From Bacteroidota bacterium (GTDB lineage Bacteria > Bacteroidota > Bacteroidia > Chitinophagales > Chitinophagaceae): a DNA stretch of 64,000 nt. Where the stretch lies: assembly GCA_030706685.1 (NCBI GenBank), contig JAUZOA010000018.1, forward strand, positions 1,329 to 65,328. Direction: 5' to 3'. The notes beneath the pieces were generated by a model. It saw nothing but the letters and a program-made list of their open reading frames with translations. It had not been told where the DNA came from and made no database searches. Shown one piece after another: positions 13,883 through 47,444 of the stretch. How positions within the stretch are numbered: position 1 is the first letter of the stretch; every line of letters starts with the position of its first letter. A program made the position numbers and the translations under genes.

Positions 13883-13884
13883 CC

Positions 13885-14593: not shown

Positions 14594-14800
14594 TTACAGG
14601 TCAAACAGCAGTAACCTCATGGGGGGCAGCTCCATATCTGCTTCTTTGACTGTCTTTGACAGGCACGGCTTTGCACAGGCAGATGAATGATTATACCTGC
14701 TGCATGCTTCCCTGTCACATTCCTTTCCATTTGGCCGGGCCGAAGAAAAAAGGCCAATGCTGCAAATGATAATAAGAATGTAAAATGTTTTTTGTTTCAT
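14594..14800 (-). CDS. small secreted Cys-rich protein (hypothetical, 68 aa)
   Basis: The ORF fills an otherwise unexplained 307-bp gap between the adaptor and ATPase genes. The N-terminus MKQKTFYILIIICSIGLFSSA looks like a signal peptide. The mature part has 4 Cys (ECDREACSRYNHSSACAKPC). I recognise no homology. Confidence 0.45.
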   Translation of the reverse strand: MKQKTFYILIIICSIGLFSSARPNGKECDREACSRYNHSSACAKPCLSKTVKEADMELPPMRLLLFDL

Positions 14801-14869
14801 GGCATTTATTTTTAGTTGTTAGCCCGGAAGCCCGAAAAATATTTCCTGGTTAAGGTTTGGGCTTTCCGT

Positions 14870-27048: not shown

Positions 27049-27753
27049 ATGGACAAAACTAATTCCAACAGTCATTCCGGTCGTCGTAAATTCTTAGGAA
27101 CCCTGACAACCGGCGCCGCCGCCATGGGTCTTGCGGGACTCGTTACTCCACTTCAGCAACTTCACGCCACTCCCGCTCCAACCATCACCGGTAATATCGA
27201 CCCTGATGAATGGTTTAAACAAATAAAAGGAAAACACCGTATTGTTTTTGATGTTACCAAACCGAATGGAATAATGCCTTTTGCATGGCCAAGAGTATTT
27301 CTTTTAACCAATGCCGCTACCGGTACACCTGAAAAAGAGTCAAGCGTCGTTGTCATTTTACGTCATGAGGGGATTCCCTTCGCTTTTGAAGACCGTATAT
27401 GGTCCAAATATAATTTTGGCGAGGTATTTAAAGTAGATGATGATGCTACCAAAAAACCCGCTGTACGAAATGCGTTCTGGAAACCGGCCAAAGGAACCTA
27501 TAAAGCTCCTGGAATAGGGGAGATAGCTATTGGCATAAATGAATTGCAGGAAAGCGGTGTTATGTTCTGCGTTTGTAATGCAGCCATGACAGTTTACAGT
27601 GCTGTGGTAGCTGATATGATGAAAATGAAAGCGGAAGATGTAATGGCTGATTGGAAATCCGGTTTATTGCCGGGAATTCAAATTGTTCCTTCAGGAGTCT
27701 GGGCAGTAGGCAGGGCCCAGGAACATGATTGCAGGTATTGTTATGCCGGCTAA
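27049..27753 (+). CDS. Tat-signal periplasmic protein, DsrE/DsrF-like fold (putative)
   Basis: Twin-arginine motif SGRRKFLGTLTTGAAAMGLAG. The body (HRIVFDVTK ... VVVILRHEGI ... MFCVCNAAM ... IQIVPSGVWAV) resembles DsrE-like proteins by eye. The assignment is from memory. Confidence 0.55.
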   Translation: MDKTNSNSHSGRRKFLGTLTTGAAAMGLAGLVTPLQQLHATPAPTITGNIDPDEWFKQIKGKHRIVFDVTKPNGIMPFAWPRVFLLTNAATGTPEKESSVVVILRHEGIPFAFEDRIWSKYNFGEVFKVDDDATKKPAVRNAFWKPAKGTYKAPGIGEIAIGINELQESGVMFCVCNAAMTVYSAVVADMMKMKAEDVMADWKSGLLPGIQIVPSGVWAVGRAQEHDCRYCYAG

Positions 27754-27772
27754 TGGCAGTAAAGACCCACCG

Positions 27773-28780
27773 ATGTGTTTTGAAAAGTCAAAATGGCTGC
27801 TGCTAATAGCCATAGCAGCGGCCATTGTAATTGTTACGGCGCTGATTGCAGAAAGAAAGAAGAAAGATTCTTTCGCAGTCAACACCAATACAATGAGTAA
27901 AGGCTTTGAATGGAAGGCTCCCGATACCAATCAAATTGCTGTTGCCGAAAACGGGCAGCTTATCCGTTATGGAAGAGAGCTTATCGCCCATACATCTTTT
28001 TATCTCGGTCCAAAAGGAAGTATAGCAGCTACTACCAATGGAATGAATTGCCAGAATTGCCACCTGGAAGCGGGTACTAAGCCCTGGGGAAATAATTACA
28101 GTGCTGTATTTGCTACTTACCCGAGATTCCGTGAACGAAGCGGAACGATAGAGAATATTTATAAAAGAGTGAATGATTGTATCGAAAGAAGTTTGAATGG
28201 AAAAGCCATAGATACAAACAGCCGGGAAATGCAGGCGATATCTTCTTATATTCAATGGTTAGGCAGCGGAGTGCCCAGGGGGACAACACCCGCGGCGGCA
28301 GGGATCAAAACAATTCCTTTTCTAAAAAGAGCTGCTGATCCCACCAGGGGGAAGATGGTGTATTGGCAGAATTGCCAGCGTTGTCATGGACCGGAAGGAA
28401 AAGGGCTTTTGAATACCGACTCGACTATGTATATATATCCTCCATTGTGGGGCGACAATAGTTACAATACCGGCGCCGGTCTATATCGTATCAGTCGTTT
28501 AGCCGGGTATGTAAAAGAAAATATGCCATTTGATGCCCCGCAAAAATCCAGGCACCTGACGGATGAAGAGGCATGGGATGTGGCCGCATTTATTAATTCG
28601 CAACCCCGTCCCGGCAAAGAGTATAAGAATGACTGGCCGGATATTGCCAGGAAGCCATTTGATCATCCTTTTGGGCCCTATATAGATAGTTTTTCAGAAC
28701 AACAACACAAATATGGCCCGTATGAACCGGTCAGGCAGTTGCAGGAGAAAATGTACAGTAAGCAGCTAAACCCTTATTGA
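27773..28780 (+). CDS. dihaem c-type cytochrome, TsdA-like (thiosulfate dehydrogenase family, putative)
   Basis: Two CxxCH motifs (MNCQNCHLEAG; QNCQRCHGPEG) and a conserved-looking Cys 39 residues after the first haem His (RVNDCIERSLNG), consistent with His/Cys ligation in TsdA. It also has a PPLWG..SYNTGAG segment and an N-terminal TM anchor. I prefer the ATG at 27773 to the track start 27725, which overlaps the upstream gene. Confidence 0.6.
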   Translation: MCFEKSKWLLLIAIAAAIVIVTALIAERKKKDSFAVNTNTMSKGFEWKAPDTNQIAVAENGQLIRYGRELIAHTSFYLGPKGSIAATTNGMNCQNCHLEAGTKPWGNNYSAVFATYPRFRERSGTIENIYKRVNDCIERSLNGKAIDTNSREMQAISSYIQWLGSGVPRGTTPAAAGIKTIPFLKRAADPTRGKMVYWQNCQRCHGPEGKGLLNTDSTMYIYPPLWGDNSYNTGAGLYRISRLAGYVKENMPFDAPQKSRHLTDEEAWDVAAFINSQPRPGKEYKNDWPDIARKPFDHPFGPYIDSFSEQQHKYGPYEPVRQLQEKMYSKQLNPY

Positions 28781-28804
28781 TATTTCATTTTAAAAAACTT
28801 TAGT

Positions 28805-29221
28805 ATGAAAAAGCATATATCGCTAACAGCTATTCTCATGCTGGTTACGTTTTTAGTGCAGGCACAGGCTCCTAATTATAAAGTTGTTTTTGATATGACC
28901 AGCCGCGATTCCGTGAACCAACAGTCTCTTATCCGGGAACTGGGACTGATCCGCGAATCAAATCCCACGGCAAAACTGGAAGTGGTGCTATACGGGCAGG
29001 GTTTGGACCTGGTAATAAAAGGCAGATCGTCACAGGAGCCTAATGTTGCCCGTTTATTAACTGATAAGGATATATCCTTTAAAGTATGCGCGATAGCCAT
29101 GAAACGGACAAACATTGTTAAAGACCAGTTGATCCCGGGAGTAGATATTGTACCCGATGGTATCTATGAAATAATATCAAAACAACAGGAAGGATGGGGT
29201 TATATAAAAGTGGCACATTAA
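28805..29221 (+). CDS. DsrE/DsrF-like family protein with Sec signal peptide
   Basis: 138 aa. Signal peptide MKKHISLTAILMLVTFLVQAQA. The body is YKVVFDMTSRD ... LEVVLYGQGLDLV ... FKVCAIAMKRT ... VDIVPDGIYEI. Confidence 0.6.
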   Translation: MKKHISLTAILMLVTFLVQAQAPNYKVVFDMTSRDSVNQQSLIRELGLIRESNPTAKLEVVLYGQGLDLVIKGRSSQEPNVARLLTDKDISFKVCAIAMKRTNIVKDQLIPGVDIVPDGIYEIISKQQEGWGYIKVAH

Positions 29222-29244
29222 ATAGAGGATAAGACCGAAAGCCG

Positions 29245-29294
29245 GAAAGTCCGGAAGACATTTACTCAACCCGAAGATTATCTTCCGGACTTTC
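29245..29294. repeat. hairpin, 14-bp perfect stem (GAAAGTCCGGAAGA / TCTTCCGGACTTTC)
   Basis: 29245-29258 is the exact reverse complement of 29281-29294, with a 22-nt loop. It lies 24 nt after the stop at 29221. No T-tract follows. Confidence 0.8.
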
Positions 29295-29343
29295 GATCTT
29301 CCCTTCTGCATTACTTTCTCGCTTTAGTGTTATTTTTATCAGT

Positions 29344-30408
29344 ATGAAACAATTCTTAATTGCCTTTTGCATACTGACATCTCTTGCTCCCCTTCATTCA
29401 CAAAAATTATCGGAAGCTGATGCGACGAAGCTGGCAAGATTGCCCCTGCGTTGCATTACAAGTGAATTTCCCAATAAGACATCACATACAGCCGATAGCG
29501 CCAGCGACGCTGTATTATTACCCAGCCAGCTTCACCCTTCGTTTTATGGTTGTCTCGACTGGCACAGCAGTGTACACGGCCATTGGCTATTGCTAAAAGT
29601 GCTGAAAGAATTTCCCTCCATCACTATCCGCGACAGCATTATACAAGTACTCAGTAATAGCTTTCAATCACAAAAAATAAATGAAGAGGCCAGCTATTTT
29701 TCAAAATACAAGACCACCAACACCTATGAACGCACTTATGGCTGGGCATGGCTGCTGAAGCTGGACGAAGAATTGTATACCTGGGATGATCCCCTTGCGA
29801 AGCAATGGCATGCCACCCTTCAACCTCTCACAAAAAAAATTGTTGCCTTGTGGAAAGCTTTTTTACCCAAACAAACCTACCCTAACCGGACAGGCGTACA
29901 TCCCAATACTGCTTTCGGTTTGGTCTTTGCGATCGACTGGGCAAGAACAGTGAAGGATACTGCTTTTGAAAATGAAATTATCAAAACAGCGAAAACATTT
30001 TATTTAAACAATACCGCTACTCCCGCCTACCTGGAGCCCGATGGCACTGATTTTTTAAGCCCCAGTCTTGAGATCGCCGACCTGATGCGACGGGTTTTGG
30101 CAAAGCAATCATTCATCGGCTGGCTGAATAAATTTTACGAAACACGAAGCATTCAACGTATTACTCAAATGCCTGTCATCAGCGATCGCACGGATTACCA
30201 GATCGTGCATTTAGACGGTCTCGCATTAAGCCGTGCCTGGTGCATGAAAGGTATCGCGAAAGAATTACCCGCTTCTCATCCCTGGAAAAAGTTGTTGGAG
30301 AAAACAGCCGCTGATTTTTTACAAAAAGCATTACCCAATGTAACCAGCGGTAATTATGGCGGAGACCATTGGCTGGCCAGTTTTGCCATTTATGCCTTAA
30401 GCCTTTAG
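29344..30408 (+). CDS. DUF2891-like protein with signal peptide (function unknown)
   Basis: 354-aa ORF. The motif FYGCLDWHSSVHGHWLLL matches what I recall as the DUF2891 hallmark (memory only). Confidence 0.65.
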   Translation: MKQFLIAFCILTSLAPLHSQKLSEADATKLARLPLRCITSEFPNKTSHTADSASDAVLLPSQLHPSFYGCLDWHSSVHGHWLLLKVLKEFPSITIRDSIIQVLSNSFQSQKINEEASYFSKYKTTNTYERTYGWAWLLKLDEELYTWDDPLAKQWHATLQPLTKKIVALWKAFLPKQTYPNRTGVHPNTAFGLVFAIDWARTVKDTAFENEIIKTAKTFYLNNTATPAYLEPDGTDFLSPSLEIADLMRRVLAKQSFIGWLNKFYETRSIQRITQMPVISDRTDYQIVHLDGLALSRAWCMKGIAKELPASHPWKKLLEKTAADFLQKALPNVTSGNYGGDHWLASFAIYALSL

Positions 30409-30758
30409 GATAAGAGGGTGAACACGGATGAAAAGGATGTAACGGATTTTTTCTTCAAACACACGAGATCACCCTGAAAAGACAGAATAAAATCTGTGTT
30501 TATCTATCTTATCTGTGTTATCCGCGTTCCGCTTACTACTTACATCCTGCGGACAGCTTTATACACAGAGGATAAAAATCTTTCTTATTTTTTTATTTCT
30601 CCCGTATGCAATTACTGCATTCAGAGCATCCTTATATCCGGGTATCCATTTCAGCATCGAATTGTAAGAACTCCCGTCACGGAATGATGTATTGACTTGC
30701 AAAAGAAGAACACAGGATACCATAAAGCCTGATCTATATATGCAGAAACCGGTAAATC

Positions 30759-30795
30759 GCCGGCGTTGAAACGCCGGCAGGTAAATCTTTTTGAC
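30759..30795 (+). terminator. GC-rich stem-loop followed by a T-run (terminator or attenuator-like) 20 nt upstream of the barrel gene
   Basis: GCCGGCGT (30759-30766) pairs with ACGCCGGC (30771-30778) around a TGAA loop. TCTTTTT follows about 8 nt later. Confidence 0.35.
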
Positions 30796-30815
30796 TAAAC
30801 TTTAAACTACGCATT

Positions 30816-33377
30816 TTGAAACCAATCCTGCTACTATTGCTATCCCCTTCTTTTGTATCGGCGCAGGTGATAAGATCTGTAGAGCCTGTGGAAACAAAAG
30901 ATTATATCAACATGATCCGCCGGCATGGCGACACTGCAAATAATAACAACGTATCGCCGGCGGACTCGATCAATAGTGTACGCAATGCCAACCTCACCCT
31001 GCGCGGCATTTTCAATCCTGCTATCGCTATCAAGAGAATAAATATCAATAACGGGAATATCAAAATCTACAGTAATTATTCAAGACGCCTGGTGCTCAGC
31101 GGCAGTTATAGTTCTGTCGCCAGTATCAAAACAACTAACCGGCTTCCCGGCTTACAAAATAATTTTGTACAAGGTGGCCCTGCAAATGGAGAATTGCGCT
31201 GGCTTGGCCCTGAAACAGGAGAAATGTTCAGCTTTGGGCCTGACATTCATGCCCTGGAATTTGATGGCAGTTCGTACCCCTATGATCAGAATGGTAAATT
31301 AGTGGCAACAGGTTCCGGCAACGGGAACCCGGCTCAAATTTATCATAGCAATATTTTCAGAACAGCGGCATCGCTCTCCCAGTCATTGAATATCCAAAGC
31401 ACGCTTTACCGCGCGGCTAAAAATACCTGGACCTTTAATGTTAAACTGGGACAAACAGGTGAACATATATACATCAGGGATAATAAAAACTCCTCCAAAA
31501 CTATTTCGGCTTCCATCGGAACAGTGTCCAAATCGCTTAGCCTTTCAGGAAACTATAGCTATTCCCGTGACAAATTCTCCAACTCTAACCGGAATGGGTT
31601 TTTAAACCGCGTATACCAGAACTCGTTGCTCACCCCGATCAGTTTTTCCGCTACCCAGGGGAATACACTTACCGGCAATATTCAAAGAAGCTATAGCCAC
31701 CTCGCGGACAACCCCTTCTTTCTATTGGATAATAACGGTAACTCCTTTTTACAGTCACAGCATCATGGAAACGTGGTATTGGAAGAAAAAACAAATAGCC
31801 TGAAATTCAAAGTAATTCAGTCTCTTGAAAGCGTACAACAAAAAAGTATTGAGCAATACAAAGAAGGAACAGCTTATTTTCCCGGCGGGATCGCCACGGG
31901 AAGAAAGAAAAATGATCTTTCTTATTTATTAACAGCCAGCGCCTGGGGAGACATTAACTATTCAAATTACAGGTATCACTCTACTTTATCTGTTAATTAT
32001 ATTTTTACGGGTACCCGGTCAGCTATCTGTTATTCCATTAATAGTCAAACCTATAGTTACCAAAGGTCTTCCAATGATGTAAACTTCAGTTATCTCACGC
32101 TTTACAGGGGACATAATATAGAAGCAGGGATTGATCTTACTAATAAATTTTATTATTCCAATACATCCGGTAAAGGCAGTTACTTCTTGCCTGCCGTCAA
32201 TTCATATGCCCGGTTGAATAATATCTTCGACTACTTTGATATCAAGCTGAATACAGCTGTCAATCATTTCAAAAGTGAATTACCGGTTGACAAGTCCTTT
32301 GCGCATATCAATTTATTGCGATACTCTACGCAGGATGCGTTTCAATATTTCCCGCTCGGGGAAGTGACGGGTTTTGATAATCTTAAAGTGATTGATCATT
32401 TTGAATGGACGGGGAAATTAGAATTGTGGTATAAGAACAATATTTCTCTCAGCGGGGAAGTGTTTATAAGAAATACCCGCCATGATGTCTTTCCTGTTTA
32501 TAAAAACGGAGACTGGGTACTTAAAAATATAGCTGATCACCGTAAAAAGGGTATTGAATTGCAGCTAAGCTCTTACCGGCTTCCTTTTTCTCCGAAGAAA
32601 TTCTCTGTCAGTAATACGCTCTCATTTACCTCCTATCAAAACAGGGTAACAAAAGTGGGAGACGGTTACAATTTCACTCCCATTGCAGGGTTCAGCAATA
32701 TTAATAAAGTTATAGCGGCGGGCGAGCCACTGGGAGCCATAGCAGGAAGCAGTTATGTCCGGGATGCATCAAATAATATCCTCATCGGGAATGATGGGTA
32801 CCCGCTTGTCAATAATCAACCAAAAATAATCGGCGATCCTACTCCTGATTTTATCATGAAGCTGAGTAATAGCATGAACTGGAAAAAATTCACGTTGTGC
32901 CTGGATATGGAATGGAAAAAAGGGGGAGATGTCTGGAATGGTACACAGGCGGCATTGGATTATTACGGAAGATCACAGACCTCGGCGATGCTGCGGAATA
33001 CGACGAATTATATTTTCCCGGGCTATTTACAGGATGGTCATATCAATAATATCCCGGTCAATTTTTATGACCCGGCTTTACCGCTTGATAAAAATCGCTG
33101 GGTGAGATACGGTCTTAGCGGTATCGCGGAAGAATATATTCAAAAGGGGGATAACATCAGGCTAAACACCTTATCCCTCGGATACAAATTGAATTTCAGG
33201 AAATATATACAGCAACTGACGGTTGGGATATACCTGGATAATATTATCCTTTGGACAGCTTATAAGGGCGCAGACCCGAACCAACTACTATATGACCAAC
33301 CGAATGGTTCGGGGCTCGACTTTTTCAATCTTCCTTCCACTAAAACATTTGGCTTTACCACCTCCATTCAATTTTGA
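30816..33377 (+). CDS. SusC/RagA-like outer-membrane beta-barrel lacking a recognisable CarboxypepD_reg + plug N-terminal module
   Basis: 853 aa with a TTG start and signal peptide MKPILLLLLSPSFVSAQ. The body and C-terminus (TKTFGFTTSIQF) parallel the barrel part of the SusC at 43937-47185. I find none of the plug signatures in the first ~100 residues. Confidence 0.75.
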   Translation: MKPILLLLLSPSFVSAQVIRSVEPVETKDYINMIRRHGDTANNNNVSPADSINSVRNANLTLRGIFNPAIAIKRININNGNIKIYSNYSRRLVLSGSYSSVASIKTTNRLPGLQNNFVQGGPANGELRWLGPETGEMFSFGPDIHALEFDGSSYPYDQNGKLVATGSGNGNPAQIYHSNIFRTAASLSQSLNIQSTLYRAAKNTWTFNVKLGQTGEHIYIRDNKNSSKTISASIGTVSKSLSLSGNYSYSRDKFSNSNRNGFLNRVYQNSLLTPISFSATQGNTLTGNIQRSYSHLADNPFFLLDNNGNSFLQSQHHGNVVLEEKTNSLKFKVIQSLESVQQKSIEQYKEGTAYFPGGIATGRKKNDLSYLLTASAWGDINYSNYRYHSTLSVNYIFTGTRSAICYSINSQTYSYQRSSNDVNFSYLTLYRGHNIEAGIDLTNKFYYSNTSGKGSYFLPAVNSYARLNNIFDYFDIKLNTAVNHFKSELPVDKSFAHINLLRYSTQDAFQYFPLGEVTGFDNLKVIDHFEWTGKLELWYKNNISLSGEVFIRNTRHDVFPVYKNGDWVLKNIADHRKKGIELQLSSYRLPFSPKKFSVSNTLSFTSYQNRVTKVGDGYNFTPIAGFSNINKVIAAGEPLGAIAGSSYVRDASNNILIGNDGYPLVNNQPKIIGDPTPDFIMKLSNSMNWKKFTLCLDMEWKKGGDVWNGTQAALDYYGRSQTSAMLRNTTNYIFPGYLQDGHINNIPVNFYDPALPLDKNRWVRYGLSGIAEEYIQKGDNIRLNTLSLGYKLNFRKYIQQLTVGIYLDNIILWTAYKGADPNQLLYDQPNGSGLDFFNLPSTKTFGFTTSIQF

Positions 33378-33381
33378 AATC

Positions 33382-36300
33382 ATGAAACTACCAGTAAAAC
33401 ATTTTGTATTCTTATTGCTGATAGCAGGATCAGTCAATAGAGTTTTTGCGCAAGTGCCGGACTATTCTTCGTCAAAGGAAAAGGTCTATATTCAAACCAA
33501 TCATGTATTCTTTAAGCCCGGCGACCAGGTCTTTTTCAAACTTTACCTCGTAAATGGGCAGGACCAAACGCCTTCCGGACAGAGCAGCGTGGTGTATGTA
33601 GAAGTCATCAACCCTTCGGGCAATGTGCTTCAAAAACTGAATTACCGGGTTGACAACGGGTATACGGAGGGTTCATTTGATTTTAATGAAGAAGCCCCCG
33701 GCGGGATTTACAAACTCCGGGCCTATACTACCTGGATGCAAAACGAAAAAGACAGCAGCTTCTTTGTAAAAGAAATTACTTTACAAAAAGTCATCGCGCC
33801 AAGAGTGCTGATGAAACTCGACTTCCCGAAAAAAGGCTATGGTGCCGGCGACGAAGTGACAGCTGATTATTCTATACGTAATCTCAGCGACCAGCCTATC
33901 CGGTATTATGAAGTAAAATATACCGTTTCCGTTGGCGGAACCACTATCCATACCAATAGCTTTAAAACGAACAATGAAGGTAAGGCGCAGGTGAAATTCA
34001 GGCTTCCCGCCGACCTGAAGAGCAGTGATGGATTGCTGAACATCACGATAGAATATGATTCTTATACAGAAGCCATTTCAAGAAGCATCCCGATTGTTCT
34101 TAATAAAATCGATCTCCAGTTCATGCCCGAAGGAGGAACCCTCGTTAACGGCATTGCCACCAACATTGCATTCAAAGCACTGAATGAAAACGGGAAACCG
34201 GCCGATATAAAAGGAGAAATATGGGATAATGAGGATAACAAGATCATGTCTTTTGAAAGTTATCATTTTGGAATGGGGAAATTTTCCTTCACGCCGCAAA
34301 AAGGGAAAACATATATTGCAAAAATCACTTCCCCTGCTTCTATCCAGGAAAAATTCAAATTGCCGGTAGCGTCGAATAATGGCATTGTGATGAATATGTC
34401 GGAGAACGACAACAAATTATTGGTCAAATTAAGCTCGACCGAAGACAGGTATATAGAATTAGCCGGGCAAACTAAAAACGTTATTTACCATTCTCAAAGG
34501 TTGTTCCTGAAAAAAGGGGAGCAGGTCACTGAAATAGATGAAAGAAAATTTCCTGCAGGCATCGCGCAGTTTACTATTTACAATGAAGATGAGTTGCCCA
34601 TAGCAGAAAGACTGGTATTCTTAAATGAGAATAAAGTATTACAGGTAAAGATCACTACCGATAAAGACAGGTATTTGCCAAGAGAGAAGGTCACGATGAC
34701 GCTTCAAACACTGGATGAAAAAGGCGACCCTGTTCCTTCAAATTTTTCTGTAGCAGTAGTAGATGACAAACTTTGGTCTTTCGCGGATGATAAACAGGAT
34801 CATATTCTTTCCTGGCTGCTGATGAGCTCTGAATTGAGAGGAAAAATTGAAGAACCACAATTCTATTTTAAAAAAGATGAGCCTAAAGCAGTGCCCGCGC
34901 TGGACCTTGTTATGCTGACTCACGGTTACCGGTATTTTGATTATATCGAATATGTTCAAAAAGAGGGGAAATTGAAATTTACACCGGACCAGCCAAATAT
35001 TTTAAGCGGTGTAGTTCTTAATGACAAACAACAACCCGTGAAAGCAAGCGTATTCCTGGTAAATCCCAATACCGGCGAAAAAGCATTGAATATAAAAACC
35101 GGTTCGGATGGCATATTTTTCTTCTCCGACCTGGCACCAAGGACGAACTACTATTTGATCGCTCAGTCCCTGAAGGAAAAAGAAAAAGTGACCATTAAAG
35201 TTTTGCAAAACGGCATAGGGTATAACCCTTTAAAAGCAAAACAACTTGCTCCACTTGCTTCAAAATTTGGCGCCCGTACAGGCTTAGGCCTGGTCAATCC
35301 CGTTAAAAAAGAAGAAGCGGAAAAAGTAAATCTAAAAATAATAGTTGATAAAAAAGAGGAAGGGCGGATGAATGAAACTCACCTGGATGAAGTAGTCATA
35401 GTTGGCTATGGCGCAGCAAAAAGAAAGGATTTAACCGCTGCGGTAGCCGTTGTAAGAAATGAGGCGTTGCCGGCAGCCAATAATCTTGGTTTTCTGCTGG
35501 AGGGCAAAGTCGCTGGCCTTGATATAGAGCAACAGGCTAATCCTGCGGCAGGAGCCGTATTTAAAATCAGGGGAGCGGCTGCATTAGCCGGCGGTAATGA
35601 GCCATTGTATGTTGTGAATGGAATACCTGTCGAAAAATTCGAATGGAATTTCAACCCGAATGATATTGAATCCATCACTATTTTGAAAGATGCGTCCGCC
35701 ACGGCGATCTATGGGGCAAGAGCTGTCAACGGCGTGATTGCCATTGAGTCGAAAAAATTCAGGAATCAAAAGATCAGGCTGGACCTGACAAAAAAATATT
35801 ACTATATCACGCAAATGATCCAGGCAGGCGGTTCTGTATACTCGGTAGCAAAAAGATTTTATGCACCAAGGTACCATTCAACGGAAACATCCGAAAGAAA
35901 TGATTTCAGGGAAACCATTTACTGGAACCCGGTAGTGCAAACCGATAAGAATGGAAAAGCATCTGTTGAATTCTATAATTCCGATGCCTCTACTACTTTC
36001 AGGGCTATCGCGGAAGGAATTGCGTATAATGGAAAAATCGGGAGAGCCGAAGCCACTTATACCACAAGGAATGCGATAACTGTCGATGCGAAGATCCCTC
36101 CTTATCTTACCGTAGGAGACAAAGCATTGATCCCATTGGTGATTAAGAATAATACTGAACAAAACGCAGATGCAACGATCAGTTTACATCTTCCCGGGAA
36201 TATTAAAACCGGTGATTATGATAACAAAATCATCTTAACGGCAGGCGAATCCAGGCAAGTGCTGATCCCGGCAGAAGCAACCGCCGCGGCTAAGGGATCC

Positions 36301-37908
36301 ATCCAGTTCATGGTAAAAAGTCAATTCAATACAGAAACGATTTCTCTGCCTGTTGTTGCCAGTGATAAGGGCTTCCCGGTAATCGAAACCTTTTCAGGAA
36401 ATAAGTCCGCCAGGCATAATTTCACCATTAATAAAATGATACCCGGAACCCTGCAATCGCATCTTAAGGTATTTCAAAATTTAGAAGGCCAGCTATTGGA
36501 TGGAATTGAATCGATGTTAAGAGAACCGGGCGGATGCTTCGAACAAACATCCTCTACTACTTATCCGAATATATATGTATTAAAATATTTACGTGAAGCC
36601 GGAAAATCCAATCCTGCTATTGAGAAAAAGGCTTTATCCTATATCGAAAACGGTTACAACAGATTGATCGGTTTCGAAACGGCTCAAAATGGTTTTGAAT
36701 GGTTTGGGCATACGCCGGCGCATGAGGCTTTGACCGCTTATGGATTGCTCGAGTTCACCGATATGCAGGAATTCATTGATGTAGATAAAAAAATGATGGA
36801 AAGAACAAAGACGTTCCTGATGAGCCGGAGAGACGGCAAAGGTTCGTTTTCCCTGGCATCTGGCGGATATGACAGGTTTGCTTCTGTCCCCGACAAGATC
36901 GCAAACATTTATATAGTATATGCTTTAACGCAAGCGGGAATCGGTAACGAGATACAGCAAGAGTACCGGGCAGCAGTAAATAAAGCCATCGACAGCAATG
37001 ACGCTTACCAGTTAGCTATGATGGCGCTGGCAGCCAGTAATATGAAAAATGAAAATGATTACGCCCGGTTGATGGAACTGCTGAATACTAACTATCAAAC
37101 GTTGAAATTGTCGGCGGAAACCAGTGTCGTCAATTCAAGAGACGCTTCACTGCGGGTGGAATCCATGTCGCTGTATACGTTGGCGCTGGCAAGAGAAAAG
37201 TCCCCGAGGATCGGCTTGATGGCAGAACTTGTTTCTAAAATACTGGGAGAAAAATCTTATTACGGGTATGGTTCAACACAGGCGACTGTGCTCGCGTTAC
37301 ATGCCATTGTTGAGTACTCCAAACTAATTGGAACTTTAGCACCGGATTCGCAGGTAGCTTTTACCCTGAATGACCAGGCAATCACTCCCGGTACCAGCCC
37401 CCTGATCAATCTCAGGAACGGGGAGAATTCATTTGATATTCATTACGAAAATGCGAACAAAACCATTCCTTACAATCTTGAAGTTTCTTACAATACGCTA
37501 ACGCCACCTAACAGCGCGAAGGCGGAACTGAAATTATCTACCCGGCTGAAAGATATTCAGACGAAAGTGGGAGAAACGGTAAGAATGGAAATTGAAGTGA
37601 AGAATGAAAGATCTGCACTTCAGCCTATGGCGATTGCAAAGATTGGAGTACCCGCTGGTTTGGCTGTACAGCCCTGGCAGTTGAAAGAAATAATGGAAAA
37701 GAATGAAGTGGCTTATTACGAAATTTTTGATAATTACCTTGTATTGTATTGGATGGGATTTGCTCCAAATGAGATCAAAAAGGTCAACCTGGATCTGAAA
37801 GCGGAAATAGCCGGCACTTATAAAGGAAAAGCCAGCAATACCTGTTTATATTATACACCTGAATACAAAAACTGGAATGATGGTGTGGAAATAGAAGTAA
37901 AACCATAG
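33382..37908 (+). CDS. alpha-2-macroglobulin-like thioester protein with an internal SusC-type CarboxypepD_reg + TonB-receptor plug module
   Basis: The ATG at 33382 gives signal peptide [24 protein letters not shown] (track start 33223 overlaps the previous gene). It has MG2-like N-terminal repeats and a CarboxypepD_reg-like segment (nt ~35002-35215). A plug-like segment lies at nt ~35383-35760 ([12 protein letters not shown] ... [35 protein letters not shown]). The thioester region [21 protein letters not shown] places Cys codon 1052 at nt 36535-36537. The C-terminus is A2M receptor-domain-like. Confidence 0.8.
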   Translation: [1508 protein letters not shown]

Positions 37909-37914
37909 AGAAAT

Positions 37915-37949
37915 GGAACACGGATGATACAGCTTGTCATCCGTGTTCC
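37915..37949. terminator. bidirectional stem-loop between convergent genes (13-bp perfect stem)
   Basis: GGAACACGGATGA (37915-37927) and TCATCCGTGTTCC (37937-37949) flank a 9-nt loop, followed by GTTTTC on the plus strand. It lies between the stops at 37908 (+) and 37956 (-). Confidence 0.7.
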
Positions 37950-37955
37950 GTTTTC

Positions 37956-39407
37956 TCAAGGCTTGCCGGGTGTAAATGAAAATGCCAAAGCCGGATAAAA
38001 AGAACCAGTCTTTAACAACGATTGAGGAAGGGATACTTTAACAACGCCATTATCATTTACCCATTTTACCGTTTCCCCATTCTGCAACAACGTCATCTTC
38101 GTTCCCTTCGCCGGGATATTGTTTTTCCATTCTATCGCAGATGGCAGCGCTTCATTATCATCCAGGCATACAAGCGCATACATTAACGTTCCCGTTTTAT
38201 TTTTAGTAAAAAATGTTTTGCCATCCTGGTATTGAGGAGTAGTGCGTGTATTATAAATGGCTTCGCCGTTTATTTTCATCCATTTTCCAATTTCTTCCAA
38301 TCGCTGAATAGCTTCTGCCTCCAGGGTTCCATCTGCCCGCGGGCCTACACCCAGCAACAGGCTCCCACCCTTTGCCACAATTTCTATTAAAGAATGAATC
38401 ACTTTTGTTGCAGACTTGAAATGTTCGTTTGGAACCCATCCCCAGGCATTGCCCAATGTCATACAGCTTTCCCATGGATGATCGAGTTGACGATCCGGGA
38501 TTCTTTGCTCGGGTGTCTGGTAGTCTTCATAAAGCCCATGCACCGTGCGATCAACGATCAGCAATCCGGGTTGCGCTTTTCGCGCCATCGTGGCGATAGC
38601 GGGTATATCAATATCCTGGCTCCAGGCGGGAATAGCAGCGCCCCATGATCGCACTTCTTCGTTGACCGTTTTCAAAGGCCTTACCCATCCCCCGTCCAGC
38701 CACAAAATATCAACCGAACCATAATTATGCATCAGTTCACCAATTTGGTTATAGGTATATTTTTTATACTGGCTCCATCGCCAGGAATATTTGCGGATAT
38801 CATAGTTGTTATTACGATCTGCGGTGGCATATTTGGGCCACCAGTAATATTCAGAATGCCAGTCGGGTTTGGAAAAATAAGCGCCGATCATAAAATCATT
38901 TTTCCGGAAAGCATCGAATACATATTTCGCTACATCGGCCCTTGGATTATTTTTAAAAGGCCCGGCTGATATTTTAAAACCCGTTTCTTTCGTATCAAAC
39001 ATACAGAACCCGTCATGGTGTTTGGTGGTAAATACAACATACCGCATACCGGCATCCTTTGCTGCATTGGCCCATTGTTCAGGATTAAAATTGACGGGGT
39101 TAAAATCTTTGGCAAGACCCCAGTACCATTTTTTATAATCATCATAAGCGATAGTACTGTCCCGTTCTATCCAATCCTCAGAACAAATAGACCACGATTC
39201 AACGATTCCCGGTACGGCATAGATGCCCCAGTGTATGATCATACCGAACTTGAGATCCTGCCATTTATCTAATTTTGCTTTTACCAATGGGTCTGTGGGC
39301 CATTCATATCCTGAGGATGAAGGTGTATTTTGTTGCGCTTTAAGGCAAACAGCAGCAAGTGTTAAAAAAGAAAATAAGAAAGCTTTGTAGGCTAATTTCA
39401 AAATCAT
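37956..39407 (-). CDS. alpha-L-fucosidase (GH29)
   Basis: 483 aa with a signal peptide and the GH29-type motif YVVFTTKHHDGFCMFDTK. The overall length is typical. Confidence 0.85.
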   Translation of the reverse strand: MILKLAYKAFLFSFLTLAAVCLKAQQNTPSSSGYEWPTDPLVKAKLDKWQDLKFGMIIHWGIYAVPGIVESWSICSEDWIERDSTIAYDDYKKWYWGLAKDFNPVNFNPEQWANAAKDAGMRYVVFTTKHHDGFCMFDTKETGFKISAGPFKNNPRADVAKYVFDAFRKNDFMIGAYFSKPDWHSEYYWWPKYATADRNNNYDIRKYSWRWSQYKKYTYNQIGELMHNYGSVDILWLDGGWVRPLKTVNEEVRSWGAAIPAWSQDIDIPAIATMARKAQPGLLIVDRTVHGLYEDYQTPEQRIPDRQLDHPWESCMTLGNAWGWVPNEHFKSATKVIHSLIEIVAKGGSLLLGVGPRADGTLEAEAIQRLEEIGKWMKINGEAIYNTRTTPQYQDGKTFFTKNKTGTLMYALVCLDDNEALPSAIEWKNNIPAKGTKMTLLQNGETVKWVNDNGVVKVSLPQSLLKTGSFYPALAFSFTPGKP

Positions 39408-39481
39408 ACTACTAAGAATTTTTGTTTCGGCTAACTTCTTTGTTATTTGCCAACCTTATACAACCAGCCTATTAACTGTGA

Positions 39482-41938
39482 TTAATCGTTTTGAATAAAA
39501 TCATTCCCCGATAATTGCCAGTCATTATCATAAAAGCCCGTCATCTTTACTTCATTGGCTCCTGATTGAAGCATATTTAATTTATAGATCATAAAGTCCG
39601 GGAAGCCGCTTGCTCCCGCAAAATATTGATTGGCTGTAGCTGCATTCATCCCTTTTATACCCGTTCCGCTGATCACGCCCACGGAAGCTATGGAAGAATT
39701 GCGAAGCGGCCATACAAAATAGGCCGCGAAATCATCTCCTTCCCAGGTTTTGCCGCCAGCGGTAATTTTATTACGCTCTACCTGTATCGGGCAATCATTT
39801 AGTACCGTTTTCCAGGCCGCATTCGTATTGCTATTGCCATAAACGATCACACCCCTGTCCTTATATTTTTCCAAGGAAAACTCTTTATCGGGGATGATAT
39901 CCACCGCCCCGTTGCCACGATAATACCATGTTTCAGCATCATACCTGGCTTTATTAAAACTCCATTCATTTTCTTCCTTTGTGCCGGTAGTGCCATATAC
40001 AAAAATCATATCGTGATTAAAAGCATCCTTAAACGTTCCATAACGATCAGGACCTTTCGCATAAGCACCCGGTACCGAAGTTACTTCCCATTTATTATTA
40101 TTCCGGGTAAGAAATAAGCTATCCGTTGAACTGGTTACTTTATATTCTACCGGCGCCGATCCATCAAGAGTAATTTTTACCAGGTCGCCGGCATTAAAAT
40201 CCCTGAGATCTAATTTCAATATGCGGGCGTTTTCTGTATTTCCGCTGATTGTTTTGGCTGCCTTATTTCTTTTTAGTTGTACCCGGCTGAATTGCAGCGG
40301 ATGTAGCTGTTGCCGGATAGCTGCCCAGCGAAAGGAAGAGGATATGCCCGGGTTAGCTGTTATGAAATCAATTGTATTCACGGCGCTGTCAACTGCCAGG
40401 CTATGCCATTTAAAGAAATCGAAGATGGGTTTCCAGTCAACGCTCTGGTCACCGAACCAATGTTCTCCATTCGGGTATTCATAATAACTGAGATCGCTGT
40501 GAAAATCGCCCAGCAATTTCCGCATTTGCCTTGCATAATTGACAGAAACAACTTTGTCGGCTTCCCCATGAAGAATATAAACACCGATAGGCTTATAATT
40601 AGATACCAGTTTGATAACATCGCTCTGGTTACCCGAGCGAAGCAATAATTGTTCTAACGGCGAGCTGCTGCTGTCGGGGATCAAGCCATCGGCGGAGCCA
40701 TAGCCTTTTAATGTAGGATAACCGGAACAGGCAGCGATCGCCGCCCACTTGTCAGGGTAAGTAGCGCCAAGAAACCATGTTCCATGGCCACCCATCGAAT
40801 GACCGGTCAGGTAAATATGTTGCGGATCGGGTTTGAATTTTTCTTTCGCGATAGCCAGCACTTCAAGAGCATCCAATCTTCCCCAGTCTTCCCAGTTAAA
40901 GCCCCGGGGCCGGCGGTTAGTCGCTGCCACCAATGTACCCCAGTCTTTTGAATGATAAGCCCTGGCTTGTCCTATTGCTTCCACGCCGGCCCCATGTACA
41001 GATAAAAACAAAGCCGCGCCTGTATTGAACGAAGGCGCTTGTGGTGTTACCGCATAATATTGAAGACTGCTGTCAATAGTGCTGATAAAAGTGTTGCTGT
41101 ATTTATCCGTCGGGTCTACCGCGTCTATCGCTATCTTTTTTTCATCTACGATTGTCGTTTTATCCAGTAGTGTTATCGTGCACTCATATTGTCCTTTTTT
41201 TGTGGCAGCCGTCCCGTCAAAATGGAAAATTATCTTGCGGGAAGACATAGCAGGCACGGAAGGAATATCAGTAGTCATTTCTTTGCCGCCGATATTGCTT
41301 TTGATATGCCATCCTTTTATCGTTTTTCCGGACGAGTTGATCAATACCACAGCGCCCATCAGGTCATTATTGGGATGGCCGGGCACTATAAACGGCAATG
41401 TCGGATCTCCTGTATCCAGGAATACGGGTTTATCGGGAAAAATAAGATCGGCGATAATGTTTTGCCCCCTTACATAGATTTCGTTCACCCCTTTCTTCAA
41501 CTTTACAGGAATAGATAACCACCCGGATGCATAAGCATCACCTGCATGTGGCTCCCCATTAAAAATAATGGCGCTGTTACCTTTTATATTGAGCAGGGCA
41601 GGCTGTTCTTTATTGGAAGAATAAGTAAGATAAATATATCCGCCCCCATCGCGGAATCCACCTCTGCCTCTCAGGCGGTTCAGGCTATCGCCGGTCACCG
41701 ATTGCCATTTAATGAGCTGCCCGTTGCGGCTTACGCCAAAGGAGTCGCCTTCGGCAGGCCGTTTCATCGTATTTGTATATAGTTTGTAAGCCAGTTGATC
41801 CGTATACAGGGCTTCGCGCCCATACCGGCTTACAGAATTGATCATCAATCCTTGCGTAAAATGATAAACGTTTTGTGAAAAAGAAAAAACATGGATCAAA
41901 AGTGAAAAGATCAAAAGCCCGGAATTTCGCTTTCTCAT
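39482..41938 (-). CDS. multidomain secreted alpha/beta hydrolase (esterase / S9-like serine hydrolase core flanked by beta-rich domains)
   Basis: I prefer the ATG at complement 41936-41938 (MRKRNSGLLIFSLLIHVFSFSQ). It has the nucleophile elbow IYLTGHSMGGHGTW, followed by ILHGEADKVV and PNGEHWF (candidate Asp/His). It sits inside a PUL. Confidence 0.7.
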   Translation of the reverse strand: MRKRNSGLLIFSLLIHVFSFSQNVYHFTQGLMINSVSRYGREALYTDQLAYKLYTNTMKRPAEGDSFGVSRNGQLIKWQSVTGDSLNRLRGRGGFRDGGGYIYLTYSSNKEQPALLNIKGNSAIIFNGEPHAGDAYASGWLSIPVKLKKGVNEIYVRGQNIIADLIFPDKPVFLDTGDPTLPFIVPGHPNNDLMGAVVLINSSGKTIKGWHIKSNIGGKEMTTDIPSVPAMSSRKIIFHFDGTAATKKGQYECTITLLDKTTIVDEKKIAIDAVDPTDKYSNTFISTIDSSLQYYAVTPQAPSFNTGAALFLSVHGAGVEAIGQARAYHSKDWGTLVAATNRRPRGFNWEDWGRLDALEVLAIAKEKFKPDPQHIYLTGHSMGGHGTWFLGATYPDKWAAIAACSGYPTLKGYGSADGLIPDSSSSPLEQLLLRSGNQSDVIKLVSNYKPIGVYILHGEADKVVSVNYARQMRKLLGDFHSDLSYYEYPNGEHWFGDQSVDWKPIFDFFKWHSLAVDSAVNTIDFITANPGISSSFRWAAIRQQLHPLQFSRVQLKRNKAAKTISGNTENARILKLDLRDFNAGDLVKITLDGSAPVEYKVTSSTDSLFLTRNNNKWEVTSVPGAYAKGPDRYGTFKDAFNHDMIFVYGTTGTKEENEWSFNKARYDAETWYYRGNGAVDIIPDKEFSLEKYKDRGVIVYGNSNTNAAWKTVLNDCPIQVERNKITAGGKTWEGDDFAAYFVWPLRNSSIASVGVISGTGIKGMNAATANQYFAGASGFPDFMIYKLNMLQSGANEVKMTGFYDNDWQLSGNDFIQND

Positions 41939-42001
41939 ATGGATATAATTATAGTTAGAATAACGCGAATTATTTTTTTCGAAAGCTACTGCCAATTAGC
42001 C

Positions 42002-42042
42002 CAAAAAAGACAAATCAGACCGCTAAATAAGCGGCCTGATTT
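42002..42042 (-). terminator. rho-independent terminator-like hairpin after the SusD-like gene
   Basis: On the minus strand, AATCAGGCCGC-loop-GCGGTCTGATT (one mismatch) is followed by TGTCTTTTTT. It lies 36 nt downstream of the stop at 42078. Confidence 0.6.
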
Positions 42043-42077
42043 TGTTTTGTTGGTTGGTCTTGCTATCTGCGAACAAA

Positions 42078-43919: not shown

Positions 43920-43936
43920 AGCAAAGATTTTTAAAA

Positions 43937-47185: not shown

Positions 47186-47444
47186 TTCGTTGAGTTTTAG
47201 GTTTAAGAATTTTGTTTGAGATAGCAATACCTGGTACAACCACATGCCGGCATGGTGCCCGGCATGGACAGTTGCATTAATCTTTCTGATGTGAACGGTG
47301 GCTTGAAACCTGATGTTAGATACACGCATGGCCCGGCCTGTACAGCCGCAACTCATGCTTACTTTAGCCTGCCTGTTACTTTGCCTGTCTACGCAGTAGT
47401 TTTAATATATACGGGACGTATATTGTAGCCTCCCTTAACCATTA

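Follow-up and report, generated by a model that had tools for sequence, protein, structure and literature searches.

Two adjacent genes in the window (the whole 64,000-nucleotide stretch of Bacteroidota DNA that was analysed) appear to share out a SusC-type TonB-linked transporter between them. The first encodes P0001, an outer-membrane barrel without a plug, and the second encodes P0002, a thioester protein of the alpha-2-macroglobulin (A2M) family with a SusC-type plug at the place of its bait region. To our knowledge, TonB-dependent transporters have always been described as single chains, with plug and barrel in one protein, and bacterial A2Ms have been portrayed as periplasmic guards with a lipid anchor. 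What appears to have happened here is that a SusC-type transporter has been split in nature, with its TonB box and plug grafted into the trigger site of a thioester trap, and this suggests a two-protein hybrid of transporter and protease trap. The domain content of the two proteins, their strict pairing and the docking predicted for them are computed results. We put at roughly 60% the probability that the pair is a TonB-linked transporter divided in two by nature, and that its plug holds a periplasmic thioester trap fast beneath the outer membrane. A first-pass annotation of the window had already seen complementary halves of a TonB-linked transporter in these genes, and profile HMMs, gene pairing and co-folding support it. 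A literature search found no published description of such a pair of plug-less barrel and A2M-plug protein.

A barrel without its plug

Coordinates are collected in Table 1. The neighbours of the pair in the window are a DUF2891 gene upstream and a fucosidase gene on the opposite strand. No SusD/RagB-family lipoprotein gene adjoins the pair in the window, no third neighbour gene, SusD-like or other, is conserved beside it across the 81 loci that were compared, and the 407-nucleotide spacer upstream of the barrel gene holds no remnant of a plug.

That P0001 is a SusC-like barrel devoid of a plug, as the first-pass annotation had it, is borne out by profile searches and by structure prediction. 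There is no Pfam match in P0001 at E<=1, Plug included, and the SusC/RagA model TIGR04056 matches its last 315 residues only (model positions 670-981) with 83.5 bits, set against a curated cutoff of 368.25 bits for the whole protein; P0002 also falls below that cutoff. The AF2 model (pLDDT 85.8) is disordered over residues 1-60 and forms a SusC-like barrel, without a plug, from about residue 90, with approximately 22 long strands by DSSP, in keeping with the 22 strands of the SusC type. Its closest fold is that of the SusC-like BT2264 (5fq7_D; Foldseek E 2e-41, TM 0.70); SusC BT1762, RagA of the peptide importer RagAB and ButC of the protein-binding ButCD are also among the nearest matches. 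The chain ends in an aromatic outer-membrane-protein signal (...S-I-Q-F), the terminal Phe of which is conserved. The short signal peptide that had been noticed is also there, and Gln17, the first mature residue, is invariant in the family alignments; cleavage before Gln is typical of Bacteroidota signal peptides. The place that TonB box and plug occupy in a canonical SusC is taken in P0001 by a conserved V-E-P-V motif, at which AF2 confidence is low.

In the barrel family the whole length of the protein is conserved, at identities between 72% and 37% and across three orders; the family numbers 599 cluster representatives at E<=1e-30. The plug is absent from every member tested, up to a length of 1062 residues; nine of the longest among the top 150 representatives (948-1062 residues) have a CarbopepD_reg extension at the N-terminus and no Plug.

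Table 1. Features of the barrel gene and the A2M-plug gene (positions in the window; residues of the encoded protein)
Feature	Residues	Position	Strand	Basis
Plug-less SusC-type outer-membrane barrel gene (P0001, 853 aa, TTG start)		30816..33377	+	ORF
P0001 type-I signal peptide	1-16	30816..30863	+	sequence
P0001 conserved N-terminal motif V-E-P-V-x-S-x-D-Y-x-x-L-I	22-34	30879..30917	+	family alignments
P0001 beta-barrel proper	~90-853	31083..33374	+	DSSP, fold matches, co-fold
Intergenic spacer, 4 nt, barrel stop to A2M-plug start codon		33378..33381	+	sequence
Thioester alpha-2-macroglobulin-like gene with SusC-type plug cassette (P0002, 1508 aa)		33382..37908	+	ORF, Pfam, models
P0002 type-I signal peptide, ending ...V-F-A-Q	1-23	33382..33450	+	sequence
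P0002 N-terminal MG domains and highly conserved helical segment	34-520	33481..34941	+	Pfam
P0002 CarboxypepD_reg-like beta-sandwich	541-613	35002..35220	+	Pfam, AF2
P0002 variable, predicted-disordered linker (candidate bait region)	614-667	35221..35382	+	pLDDT, alignment
P0002 TonB-box-like strand L-D-E-V-V-I-V-G-Y-G	668-677	35383..35412	+	alignments
P0002 SusC-type plug domain	681-806	35422..35799	+	Pfam, TIGRFAM, phmmer, co-fold
P0002 A2M (MG7) domain	845-934	35914..36183	+	Pfam A2M, from profile position 1
P0002 thioester domain (TED)	1039-1312	36496..37317	+	Pfam TED_complement E 2e-27
P0002 thioester motif G-C-F-E-Q	1051-1055	36532-36546	+	sequence alignment
P0002 C-terminal beta-sandwich, MG8/receptor-binding-domain-like	~1325-1508	37354..37905	+	AF2 strands

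A plug cassette inside a thioester protein

The reading frame that begins just past the barrel stop does encode a secreted protein, and signal peptides of the ...A-Q type are found in all 70 of its orthologues. Neither P0002 nor these 70 orthologues have a lipobox Cys in the signal peptide, so P0002 would be without an inner-membrane anchor, and a T9SS C-terminal domain was not found in P0002 as a Por_Secre_tail match in Pfam. The MG2-like N-terminus and the thioester region claimed for it are both present: MG2 (residues 34-125), A2M and TED_complement all exceed their Pfam cutoffs, with a weak A2M_BRD match at 416-462, and all 74 sequences aligned carry the GCFEQ motif unchanged. The most conserved stretch of the protein, residues 441-520, is invariant in plug-less orthologues too; the A2M/MG7 domain is preceded by a conserved segment (D-F-R-E-T-I-Y-W-N-P), and residues 826-849 are invariant. 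The A2M receptor-like C-terminus proposed at first pass stands as far as the fold goes, the model having a beta-sandwich there, and fails at the level of the Pfam family, in that A2M_recep is not detected in P0002 itself and A2M_recep or bMG10 matches are confined to its relatives. As a whole, the model folds like native-state A2ML1, A2Moo, CD109, ECAM and SaA2M (Foldseek E 1e-35 to 6e-41). The TED matches those of CD109, A2ML1 and A2M in phmmer searches (E 1e-16 to 1e-18); the comparisons with SaA2M and ECAM/YfhM yield E 4e-6 and 8e-4, with no significant stretch.

The cassette between these macroglobulin parts comprises a beta-sandwich, a linker, a TonB-box-like strand and the plug. The identification of a SusC-type plug holds up in every search: Pfam Plug scores 55.3 bits over residues 681-785 (cutoff 23.9), TIGR04056 matches residues 665-806 at its positions 75-219 with 153 bits, the SusC/RagA signature TIGR04057 matches residues 761-791 with 55.5 bits (cutoff 46.2), and phmmer aligns the plug with residues 105-241 of SusC BT1762 (E 5.7e-26). 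The TonB-box-like strand is conserved across the orthologues as E-V-V-V-V-G-Y-G and aligns with the plug-proximal N-terminus of SusC BT1762, of RagA and of the SusC that the window itself encodes. Ahead of it, the linker is among the least conserved stretches of P0002 (38-74 residues long in orthologues), and pLDDT is below 50 across residues 615-686 of the AF2 model. The CarboxypepD_reg-like domain was a less complete success for the first-pass annotation: the region does fold as a beta-sandwich in the AF2 model, but the profile match (residues 541-600) reaches 27.1 bits and so falls short of the Pfam cutoff of 32.3. This domain resembles the N-terminal extension of SusC; because plug-less A2M orthologues (L124, L125) retain it, it may belong to the A2M by origin and not have arrived with a SusC cassette.

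The plug had been placed roughly where a bait region would be, and the orthologues support this placement. In those that lack the plug, a charged, low-complexity, bait-like stretch occupies precisely its position, just before the conserved start of A2M/MG7.

Pairing, docking and what the pair may do

The plug of P0002 is, as had been noticed, colinear with that of the SusC in the window (residues 665-797 against 157-316, E 2e-18), and residues 590-853 of P0001 align with residues 853-1139 of the same SusC (E 9e-9). On that SusC the two alignments are colinear and do not overlap, and on the TIGR04056 model, too, the pair covers plug and barrel with no overlap.

The co-occurrence that the first-pass annotation asked about is strict. 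Pairing was counted over 80 barrel loci: an A2M gene starts directly after the barrel in all 79 that extend beyond the barrel stop, all 76 that run on far enough contain the plug cassette, and 3-5 nt separate the two genes at 66 of 70 orthologous loci. The same pair is found in Niastella koreensis (CP003178.1) and with P0351 and P0372, which are two of the most divergent among the barrel representatives listed (473-497 bits). Among 401 Bacteroidota genomes, full-length barrel matches occur in only five (G000, G271, G135, G239 and G047), and these are exactly the five that hold a full-length protein with A2M and Plug, the genes being adjacent in each. Two further genomes (G363 and G194) have orthologous thioester A2Ms (36-38% identity) without Plug, and a barrel of the P0001 type was found neither beside the A2M gene nor by genome search in either. 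The barrel family extends to about 220 species genomes, and the pair is found in no fewer than 220 species of Chitinophagaceae, Sphingobacteriales and Flavobacteriales. The hosts of the pair are soil Bacteroidota.

When residues 19-853 of P0001 and 662-815 of P0002 are co-folded, the plug comes to lie in the barrel lumen, as had been anticipated, with an ipSAE of 0.85 (best of three controls, 0.00). Of 80 solved complexes 58 attain the ipSAE mark, as do 2 of 110 mismatched pairs; these counts are only approximate because our own alignments were used. Contact agreement between runs is at least 75% and partner pLDDT at least 62; the plug itself, at pLDDT 52-73 in the monomer model, is at about 63 in the complex. 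The approximately 400 contacts involve alternating residues, facing the plug, on nearly all strands; in conservation, the barrel residues that make them do not stand out from the rest of the barrel (0.57 versus 0.56). The high score may in part reflect memory of solved one-chain TonB-dependent transporters: since plug-in-barrel structures of that kind have been solved, a pass signifies likeness to them and is not proof that the pair binds.

The reading that we prefer would make one outer-membrane machine of two polypeptides, in which P0001 is a SusC-type barrel of 22 strands, now without TonB box and plug after their loss, and P0002 a secreted, non-lipidated thioester A2M with a SusC-type cassette in place of its bait region. 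The plug would enter the barrel from the periplasm, shutting the pore, and, once docked, would hang the A2M body directly beneath the outer membrane. Since a canonical plug turns its two ends towards the periplasm, the MG, thioester and C-terminal domains would all be periplasmic, and this canonical topology favours an outer-membrane-tethered periplasmic A2M over surface display. P0002 would most likely remain a protease trap: a protease reaching the periplasm would cut the exposed linker of about 55 residues beside the plug, and the chain break would set off the conformational change usual in A2Ms; the protease would then be captured covalently by the thioester, with the complex staying tied to the outer membrane. 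We infer complex formation in the cell, its topology, the function as a trap and any dependence on TonB; that the TonB box is conserved suggests an ability of TonB to act on the plug even now.

The trigger in A2Ms is a discontinuity of the bait, after which the segment that follows retracts from a channel (PMC9352918). One might speculate, at rather long odds, that mechanical coupling of the two machines is the reason why the plug sits at the bait position. Bait proteolysis could, by way of the A2M conformational change, pull the plug out or lock it, and so convert proteolytic damage into opening or sealing of an outer-membrane pore. Alternatively, the pull of TonB on its box could supply the force that sets off a thioester protein, which would capture cargo entering by way of the barrel, possibly foreign proteases or bacteriocins that parasitise TonB-dependent receptors.

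That the pair is primarily a transporter, a TonB-gated import channel with a built-in trap, seems to us rather unlikely. TonB would then pull the trans-acting plug and open the barrel to peptides, proteins, foreign proteases or toxins, and the A2M body below the pore would receive or neutralise what came in, or bait cleavage would alter the gating. The TonB-box-like segment and SusC signature are indeed conserved as in working SusCs, RagAB and ButCD are among the nearest solved folds, and plug cassette and barrel diverge equally (mean pairwise identity 0.43 each, compared with 0.56 for the rest of the A2M). The substrate is, however, purely hypothetical, and neither a SusD-like lid nor another uptake or processing gene is conserved beside the pair; moreover, by the rule in PMC9352918, a pull on the TonB box alone would leave the chain unbroken.

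It is distinctly improbable that the barrel instead translocates a portion of the A2M protein, as happens in two-partner secretion or with an inverse autotransporter, with the plug as stopper and anchor and the trap displayed outside. The strict gene coupling is like that of two-partner secretion, P0002, having neither lipid anchor nor T9SS signal, would need a route of its own to the surface, and a role here could be imagined for the conserved N-terminal motif of the barrel. Export would, however, require some 700 residues of folded MG and TED to traverse a lumen that the plug later fills, and the co-fold contacts use residues 684-804 of P0002 and leave both plug termini free. In all solved TonB-dependent transporters that we know of, both plug ends are at the periplasmic mouth, and the solved Gram-negative A2Ms matched here (ECAM/YfhM and SaA2M), deposited as lipoproteins, are presumably periplasmic ones.

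Very little credence attaches to the idea that the two proteins form no plug-in-barrel complex, the plug-like domain being a TonB- or protein-binding module with another role and the barrel an independent pore, open or self-gated, that shares the operon. Short MG+Plug proteins are very common in Bacteroidota and have no plug-less barrel next to them, so a plug in an MG protein is not always accompanied by a neighbouring barrel, and the memory of solved structures could account for the co-fold. A protein combining Plug, VWA and a T9SS tail also exists. Yet plug insert and barrel gene co-vary exactly in presence and absence, the SusC model is divided exactly between the two proteins, and an unplugged 22-strand pore would presumably be a large outer-membrane leak. 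Decay of the barrel gene, as a SusC fragment beside an unrelated fusion protein, would fit the missing N-terminal third of a canonical SusC and the missed TIGR04056 cutoff, and is refuted by the conservation of the barrel family, with its open frame in full-length loci, its spread over three orders and hundreds of representatives, its confident barrel model and its conserved C-terminal Phe.

Hundreds of species have retained the two genes side by side. If the split transporter with its tethered trap is real, it would offer a natural system in which to follow how a plug is inserted and removed and how TonB acts in trans, a novel mode of anchoring a periplasmic defence protein at the outer membrane, and possibly a link of protease sensing to outer-membrane permeability; mechanical coupling, in whichever of the two forms, would introduce a principle new to TonB-dependent transporters and to A2M proteins alike. 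It also offers a reading for barrel genes annotated as 'hypothetical protein' or, loosely, 'TonB-dependent receptor', and for A2M-plug genes annotated as 'TonB-dependent receptor plug domain-containing protein'. Culturable hosts include Niastella koreensis and species of Chitinophaga and Chryseobacterium.

Relation to known transporters and macroglobulins

The SusC/RagA transporters (BT2264 in 5FQ6-8, BT1762, RagA) share with the pair the barrel fold, the plug, the TonB box and the SusC signature, and the order of beta-sandwich, TonB box and plug at the SusC N-terminus is the order in P0002. They differ in that the pair distributes plug and barrel over two chains, the plug lying within a 1508-residue A2M-family protein, that there is no SusD partner gene here, and that neither protein alone attains the TIGR04056 cutoff. 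Closure of a barrel by a separate protein has a counterpart in the SprA translocon of type IX secretion, a 36-strand Bacteroidota outer-membrane barrel that is shut from the periplasm by a separate 'Plug' protein; its sequence and fold are unrelated, its 'Plug' is not that of a TonB-dependent transporter, and there is no A2M part. Supply of the plug in trans has a precedent in laboratory-split FhuA: when E. coli produces its cork and barrel separately, they form an active receptor (Braun et al. 2003, as cited in PMC2615193), which shows that a TonB-dependent transporter tolerates delivery of its plug in trans, with assembly in the outer membrane preserved. In contrast to the pair described here, that is an engineered split of one gene, and its cork stands alone as a free domain instead of being built into another large protein.

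On the A2M side, ECAM/YfhM of E. coli and SaA2M of Salmonella have in common with P0002 a ring of MG domains, a CxEQ TED and a C-terminal MG domain; the P0002 model resembles their native-state fold (5a42, 4u48; E ~1e-36), and a periplasmic location is presumed for them as it is for P0002. P0002 is distinguished from both proteins by having no lipobox, by its plug cassette at the bait position, by having the barrel gene as its only conserved neighbour and by a TED closer to the CD109/A2ML1/A2M type. The eukaryote-type A2Ms (A2M, A2ML1, CD109 and insect TEP1) match the TED and the whole model best, in sequence and in fold, and also share the conserved lead-in to A2M/MG7 with a disordered, variable stretch ahead of it. 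In contrast to these, P0002 is bacterial and predicted to be periplasmic, its gene is coupled to that of an outer-membrane barrel, and its bait site carries about 270 extra residues that make up a beta-sandwich, a TonB box and a plug.

Two complementary proteins

The first-pass annotation had described two adjacent genes, one for a SusC-type barrel lacking its plug (P0001) and one for a protein of the alpha-2-macroglobulin (A2M) family that carries the missing plug (P0002), and had read them as complementary halves of one TonB-linked transporter. The observation is confirmed, and every computational test that could be applied favours this interpretation. P0001, searched as a whole protein, has no Pfam match at E<=1, and the NCBIfam SusC/RagA profile TIGR04056 matches only its last 315 residues (83.5 bits vs a cutoff of 368) at model positions 670-981, that is, with the C-terminal third of the model; this bears out the assignment as a barrel without a plug. 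Its AlphaFold2 model (28-sequence alignment; pLDDT 85.8, pTM 0.80), a confident one, has a disordered segment at residues 1-60, a hairpin of small size at 72-86 and ~22 long strands over residues 90-852. The best match among solved folds is the SusC-like BT2264 (5fq7_D; E 2e-41, TM 0.70, 18% identity), followed by BT1762, RagA and ButC, with classical siderophore receptors weaker, at only ~1e-15. Upstream of the barrel gene, no plug remnant was found in 30300-30900, which includes the 407-nt spacer, and no Rfam family reaches its gathering threshold in 29000-39500, the spacer again included. The conserved motif that directly follows the P0001 signal peptide, where AlphaFold2 confidence is low, may be a peptide through which the partner protein docks. 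In Chryseobacterium and some Chitinophagaceae barrels the same motif sits after an N-terminal CarbopepD_reg domain.

P0002 had been proposed to combine MG2-like repeats, a thioester region, a receptor-domain-like C-terminus and an internal SusC-type cassette. Its MG2, A2M and TED_complement domains stand above cutoff, as do Plug and the SusC signature TIGR04057; the CarboxypepD_reg match is sub-threshold, and this copy gives no match to Pfam A2M_recep. The model of residues 309-1508 (AlphaFold2, pLDDT 73.4) resembles native-state A2ML1, frog A2Moo, CD109, ECAM and SaA2M (E 1e-35 to 6e-41), with TM ~0.41 vs native A2M forms and ~0.22 vs activated ones. Residues 615-686, which lead from a beta-sandwich to the TonB box, are predicted to be disordered, and the plug by itself is modelled with moderate confidence only, which is not surprising when the barrel around it is missing. 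The thioester motif G-C-F-E-Q is invariant in 74/74 sequences, and orthologues also retain a TonB-box-like L-x-E-V-V-V-V-G-Y-G (residues 668-677 in P0002) and the signature motifs of the plug; the linker ahead of the TonB box, 38 to 74 aa long, is one of the most poorly conserved regions of the protein. Signal peptides of the orthologues are all of the ...A-Q type, without a lipobox, and a Pfam search detected no T9SS tail in P0002.

When aligned to the canonical SusC of the window, the two proteins complement each other in colinear order: residues 665-797 of P0002 correspond to SusC 157-316 (E 2e-18), as had been claimed for the plug, and residues 590-853 of P0001 to SusC 853-1139 (E 9e-9). 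With alignments matched by genome, the co-fold of the barrel (residues 19-853) and the plug segment of P0002 (residues 662-815) scored 0.85, and the best of three controls 0.00. Of 80 solved complexes, 58 attain that mark, as do 2 of 110 mismatched pairs; these counts are approximate, the alignments used here being self-made. The runs share at least 75% of contacts, with partner pLDDT at least 62. The ~400 contacts fall on alternating residues of nearly every barrel strand, which places the plug in the barrel lumen, where the first-pass annotation had suggested it might dock. Since one-chain plug-in-barrel structures have been solved, passing this test amounts to likeness to them and is not proof that the pair binds; the prediction may lean in part on those structures. 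Conservation is no higher at the barrel positions predicted to touch the plug than at the remaining ones (0.57 vs 0.56), and this comparison therefore lends no further support.

Coordinates of the gene pair, of domains in its products and of neighbouring and related genes (window positions unless residues or another locus are named)
Feature	Position	Strand	Remarks
ORF A, barrel protein P0001	30816-33377	+	TTG start; 853 aa; short signal peptide; C-terminus ...S-I-Q-F
Motif V-E-P-V-x-S-x-D-Y-x-x-L-I	30879-30917		P0001 residues 22-34
ORF B, A2M-plug protein P0002	33382-37908	+	1508 aa; type-I signal peptide; starts 4 nt past ORF A stop codon
Pfam MG2	P0002 34-125		above cutoff
Conserved stretch D-D-K-L-W...I-L-S-W-L-L-M-S-S-E-L...	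34702-34941		P0002 residues 441-520
Pfam CarboxypepD_reg	P0002 541-600		27 bits, below cutoff
TIGR04056, model positions 75-219	P0002 665-806		153 bits
Pfam Plug	P0002 681-785		55 bits, cutoff 24
TIGR04057 SusC signature	P0002 761-791		above cutoff
Pfam A2M	P0002 845-934		above cutoff
Pfam TED_complement	P0002 1039-1312		above cutoff
MacB_PCD+FtsX permeases	1439-13809	-	five tandem paralogous genes, ~800 aa each
ABC ATPase	13885-14562	-
HlyD-type adaptor	14870-16123	-
Sulfur-related cluster	27049-30408	+	includes a 234-aa protein without assignment
SoxA/TsdA-type dihaem cytochrome c	27725-28780	+
DsrE-like protein	28805-29221	+
DUF2891 protein	29344-30408	+	follows the sulfur-related genes
Polysaccharide-utilisation-type cluster	37956-47356	-	alpha-L-fucosidase, esterase/S9-like hydrolase, SusD-like protein (42078-43919)
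Canonical SusC	43937-47356	-	N-terminal extension and plug; internal reference for the alignments
Short MG+Plug proteins	G000:C113:48616-51015 (L119:7616-10015); L120:6927-9641; L121:6884-9574; L126:7955-10444; L128:7752-10433		family members
Plug+VWA protein (Chryseobacterium)	L063:5265-7535		756 aa; T9SS C-terminal sorting domain

Conservation of the gene pair

Members of the barrel family in Chitinophagaceae, Desertivirga and Chryseobacterium are conserved over the whole protein, at identities between 72% and 37%; an exhaustive profile search yields 599 cluster representatives at E<=1e-30, and a pattern scan with one genome per species finds the barrel in ~220 species. Family members have no precomputed Pfam domain in the database except for an N-terminal CarbopepD_reg in a longer subgroup, and nine of the longest among the best 150 representatives (948-1062 aa) have that domain and no Plug. 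The A2M+Plug architecture is also common, and is annotated automatically as, for example, 'TonB-dependent receptor plug domain-containing protein'.

Whether the two genes are always neighbours was a question raised at the outset. Among 80 loci kept from the pattern scan and examined by tblastn, the A2M gene starts directly downstream of the barrel on the same strand in all 79 that extend past the barrel stop, the plug cassette is present in all 76 that are long enough, and the intergenic spacer measures 3-5 nt in 66 of 70. Spot checks found the pair at the loci of two divergent barrel representatives (P0351 and P0372), in Niastella koreensis GR20-10 (at about CP003178.1:1354016-1361075) and on one further metagenome contig. 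No other neighbouring gene is conserved beside the pair across the loci compared. A search among proteins of 1494-4265 aa detected none with the barrel, which is weak evidence on fused forms. In an even sample of 401 Bacteroidota genomes, full-length A2M+Plug proteins occur in five (G000, G271, G047, G239 and G135) and full-length barrels in those five alone, the two genes being neighbours every time; one more barrel match, C-terminal only and within a 1063-aa frame, is most likely an ordinary full-length SusC.

Two further genomes (G363 and G194) encode orthologous thioester A2Ms (36-38% identity) that keep the CarboxypepD_reg domain(s) and have no Plug, and no P0001-type barrel was found beside these genes or in the genome search. 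Thus, plug and barrel appear and disappear together.

Neighbouring genes and other plugs outside barrels

Short secreted proteins (~800-930 aa) with macroglobulin (MG), CarboxypepD_reg and Plug domains form a very common Bacteroidota family; they end at the start of the A2M/MG7 domain, without a thioester domain. The genome from which the window comes carries a single member, with a Plug that can no longer be detected. The large genes found beside these orphan MG+Plug genes encode CcmF, a complete TonB-dependent receptor, a C39 ABC exporter and a glycyl-radical enzyme, and none is a plug-less barrel. The Plug+VWA protein of Chryseobacterium is another plug outside any barrel.

The five ~800-aa frames at the start of the window were considered as relatives of the short MG+Plug proteins and rejected, being MacB/FtsX permeases; with the ABC ATPase and adaptor genes that follow they form an unusually expanded MacB-like efflux array (1439-16123). 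Upstream, the pair is preceded by a small cluster of sulfur-related genes and then the DUF2891 gene, none of them conserved with it in other genomes, and an ordinary polysaccharide-utilisation-type cluster lies downstream. In Niastella koreensis and a related metagenome contig, a PorP/SprF-family gene precedes the pair (L136:283-1314 and L137:349-1383); the Niastella pair is flanked by CHU_C (T9SS type B) cargo genes, a context not conserved in other genera.

The plug at the bait position

In the alignment, the place of the plug is taken in the plug-less orthologues by a charged low-complexity stretch, which directly precedes the conserved segment ahead of the A2M/MG7 domain. This stretch is of a kind to be expected for a bait region; the plug cassette is therefore at the bait position, roughly where it had been placed from the start. 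The most conserved stretch of P0002, residues 441-520, is predicted to be helical with low confidence. It is invariant also in plug-less orthologues (L124 and L125) and is therefore intrinsic to this Bacteroidota A2M clade; a helical stretch at 441-536 was rejected as a barrel-docking site, being equally invariant in orthologues with neither plug nor barrel.

We propose that the pair would be a naturally split SusC-type transporter whose barrel receives its plug in trans, the donor being the bait site of an A2M-family protein. In canonical transporters the plug has its two ends facing the periplasm, so that the A2M body as a whole would be suspended under the outer membrane. To judge by the thioester motif, the thioester domain (TED), the conserved segment before MG7 and the native-like predicted fold, the A2M apparatus seems complete. 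An A2M is triggered when the bait is broken and the next segment then retracts from a channel (PMC9352918), which makes the variable, disordered linker by the plug the likely bait. A protease entering the periplasm would be covalently bound, and the trap would stay tied to the barrel. From the conservation of the TonB box it appears that the plug can still be engaged by TonB.

The same components could be read as a TonB-gated import channel with the A2M as receiving trap, or as gating under protease control, which we consider unlikely. Somewhat less likely still is a barrel that serves as dedicated exporter for surface display of the A2M, a reading disfavoured by the plug topology. That the two do not dock, the P0002 plug serving a different function, like that of the common short orphan MG+Plug proteins, is improbable in view of the exact co-variation of plug and barrel. 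The decaying SusC fragment that the first-pass annotation had envisaged is refuted by the conservation data.

The components of the split transporter proposed here come from known families; for their arrangement, a barrel plugged in trans from the trigger site of a thioester protein, we could find no described counterpart, and a limited literature search, weak evidence of absence, found no paper on a barrel plugged by an A2M-family protein. A precedent made in the laboratory is split FhuA, for which PMC2615193 cites Braun et al. (2003) as showing that the plug can be supplied in trans. ECAM and SaA2M are held by a lipid anchor; P0002, in contrast, would be a periplasmic A2M anchored differently, via the barrel. 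By sequence, its TED is nearer to those of CD109, A2ML1 and A2M (1e-16 to 1e-18) than to those of SaA2M and ECAM (4e-6 and 8e-4).
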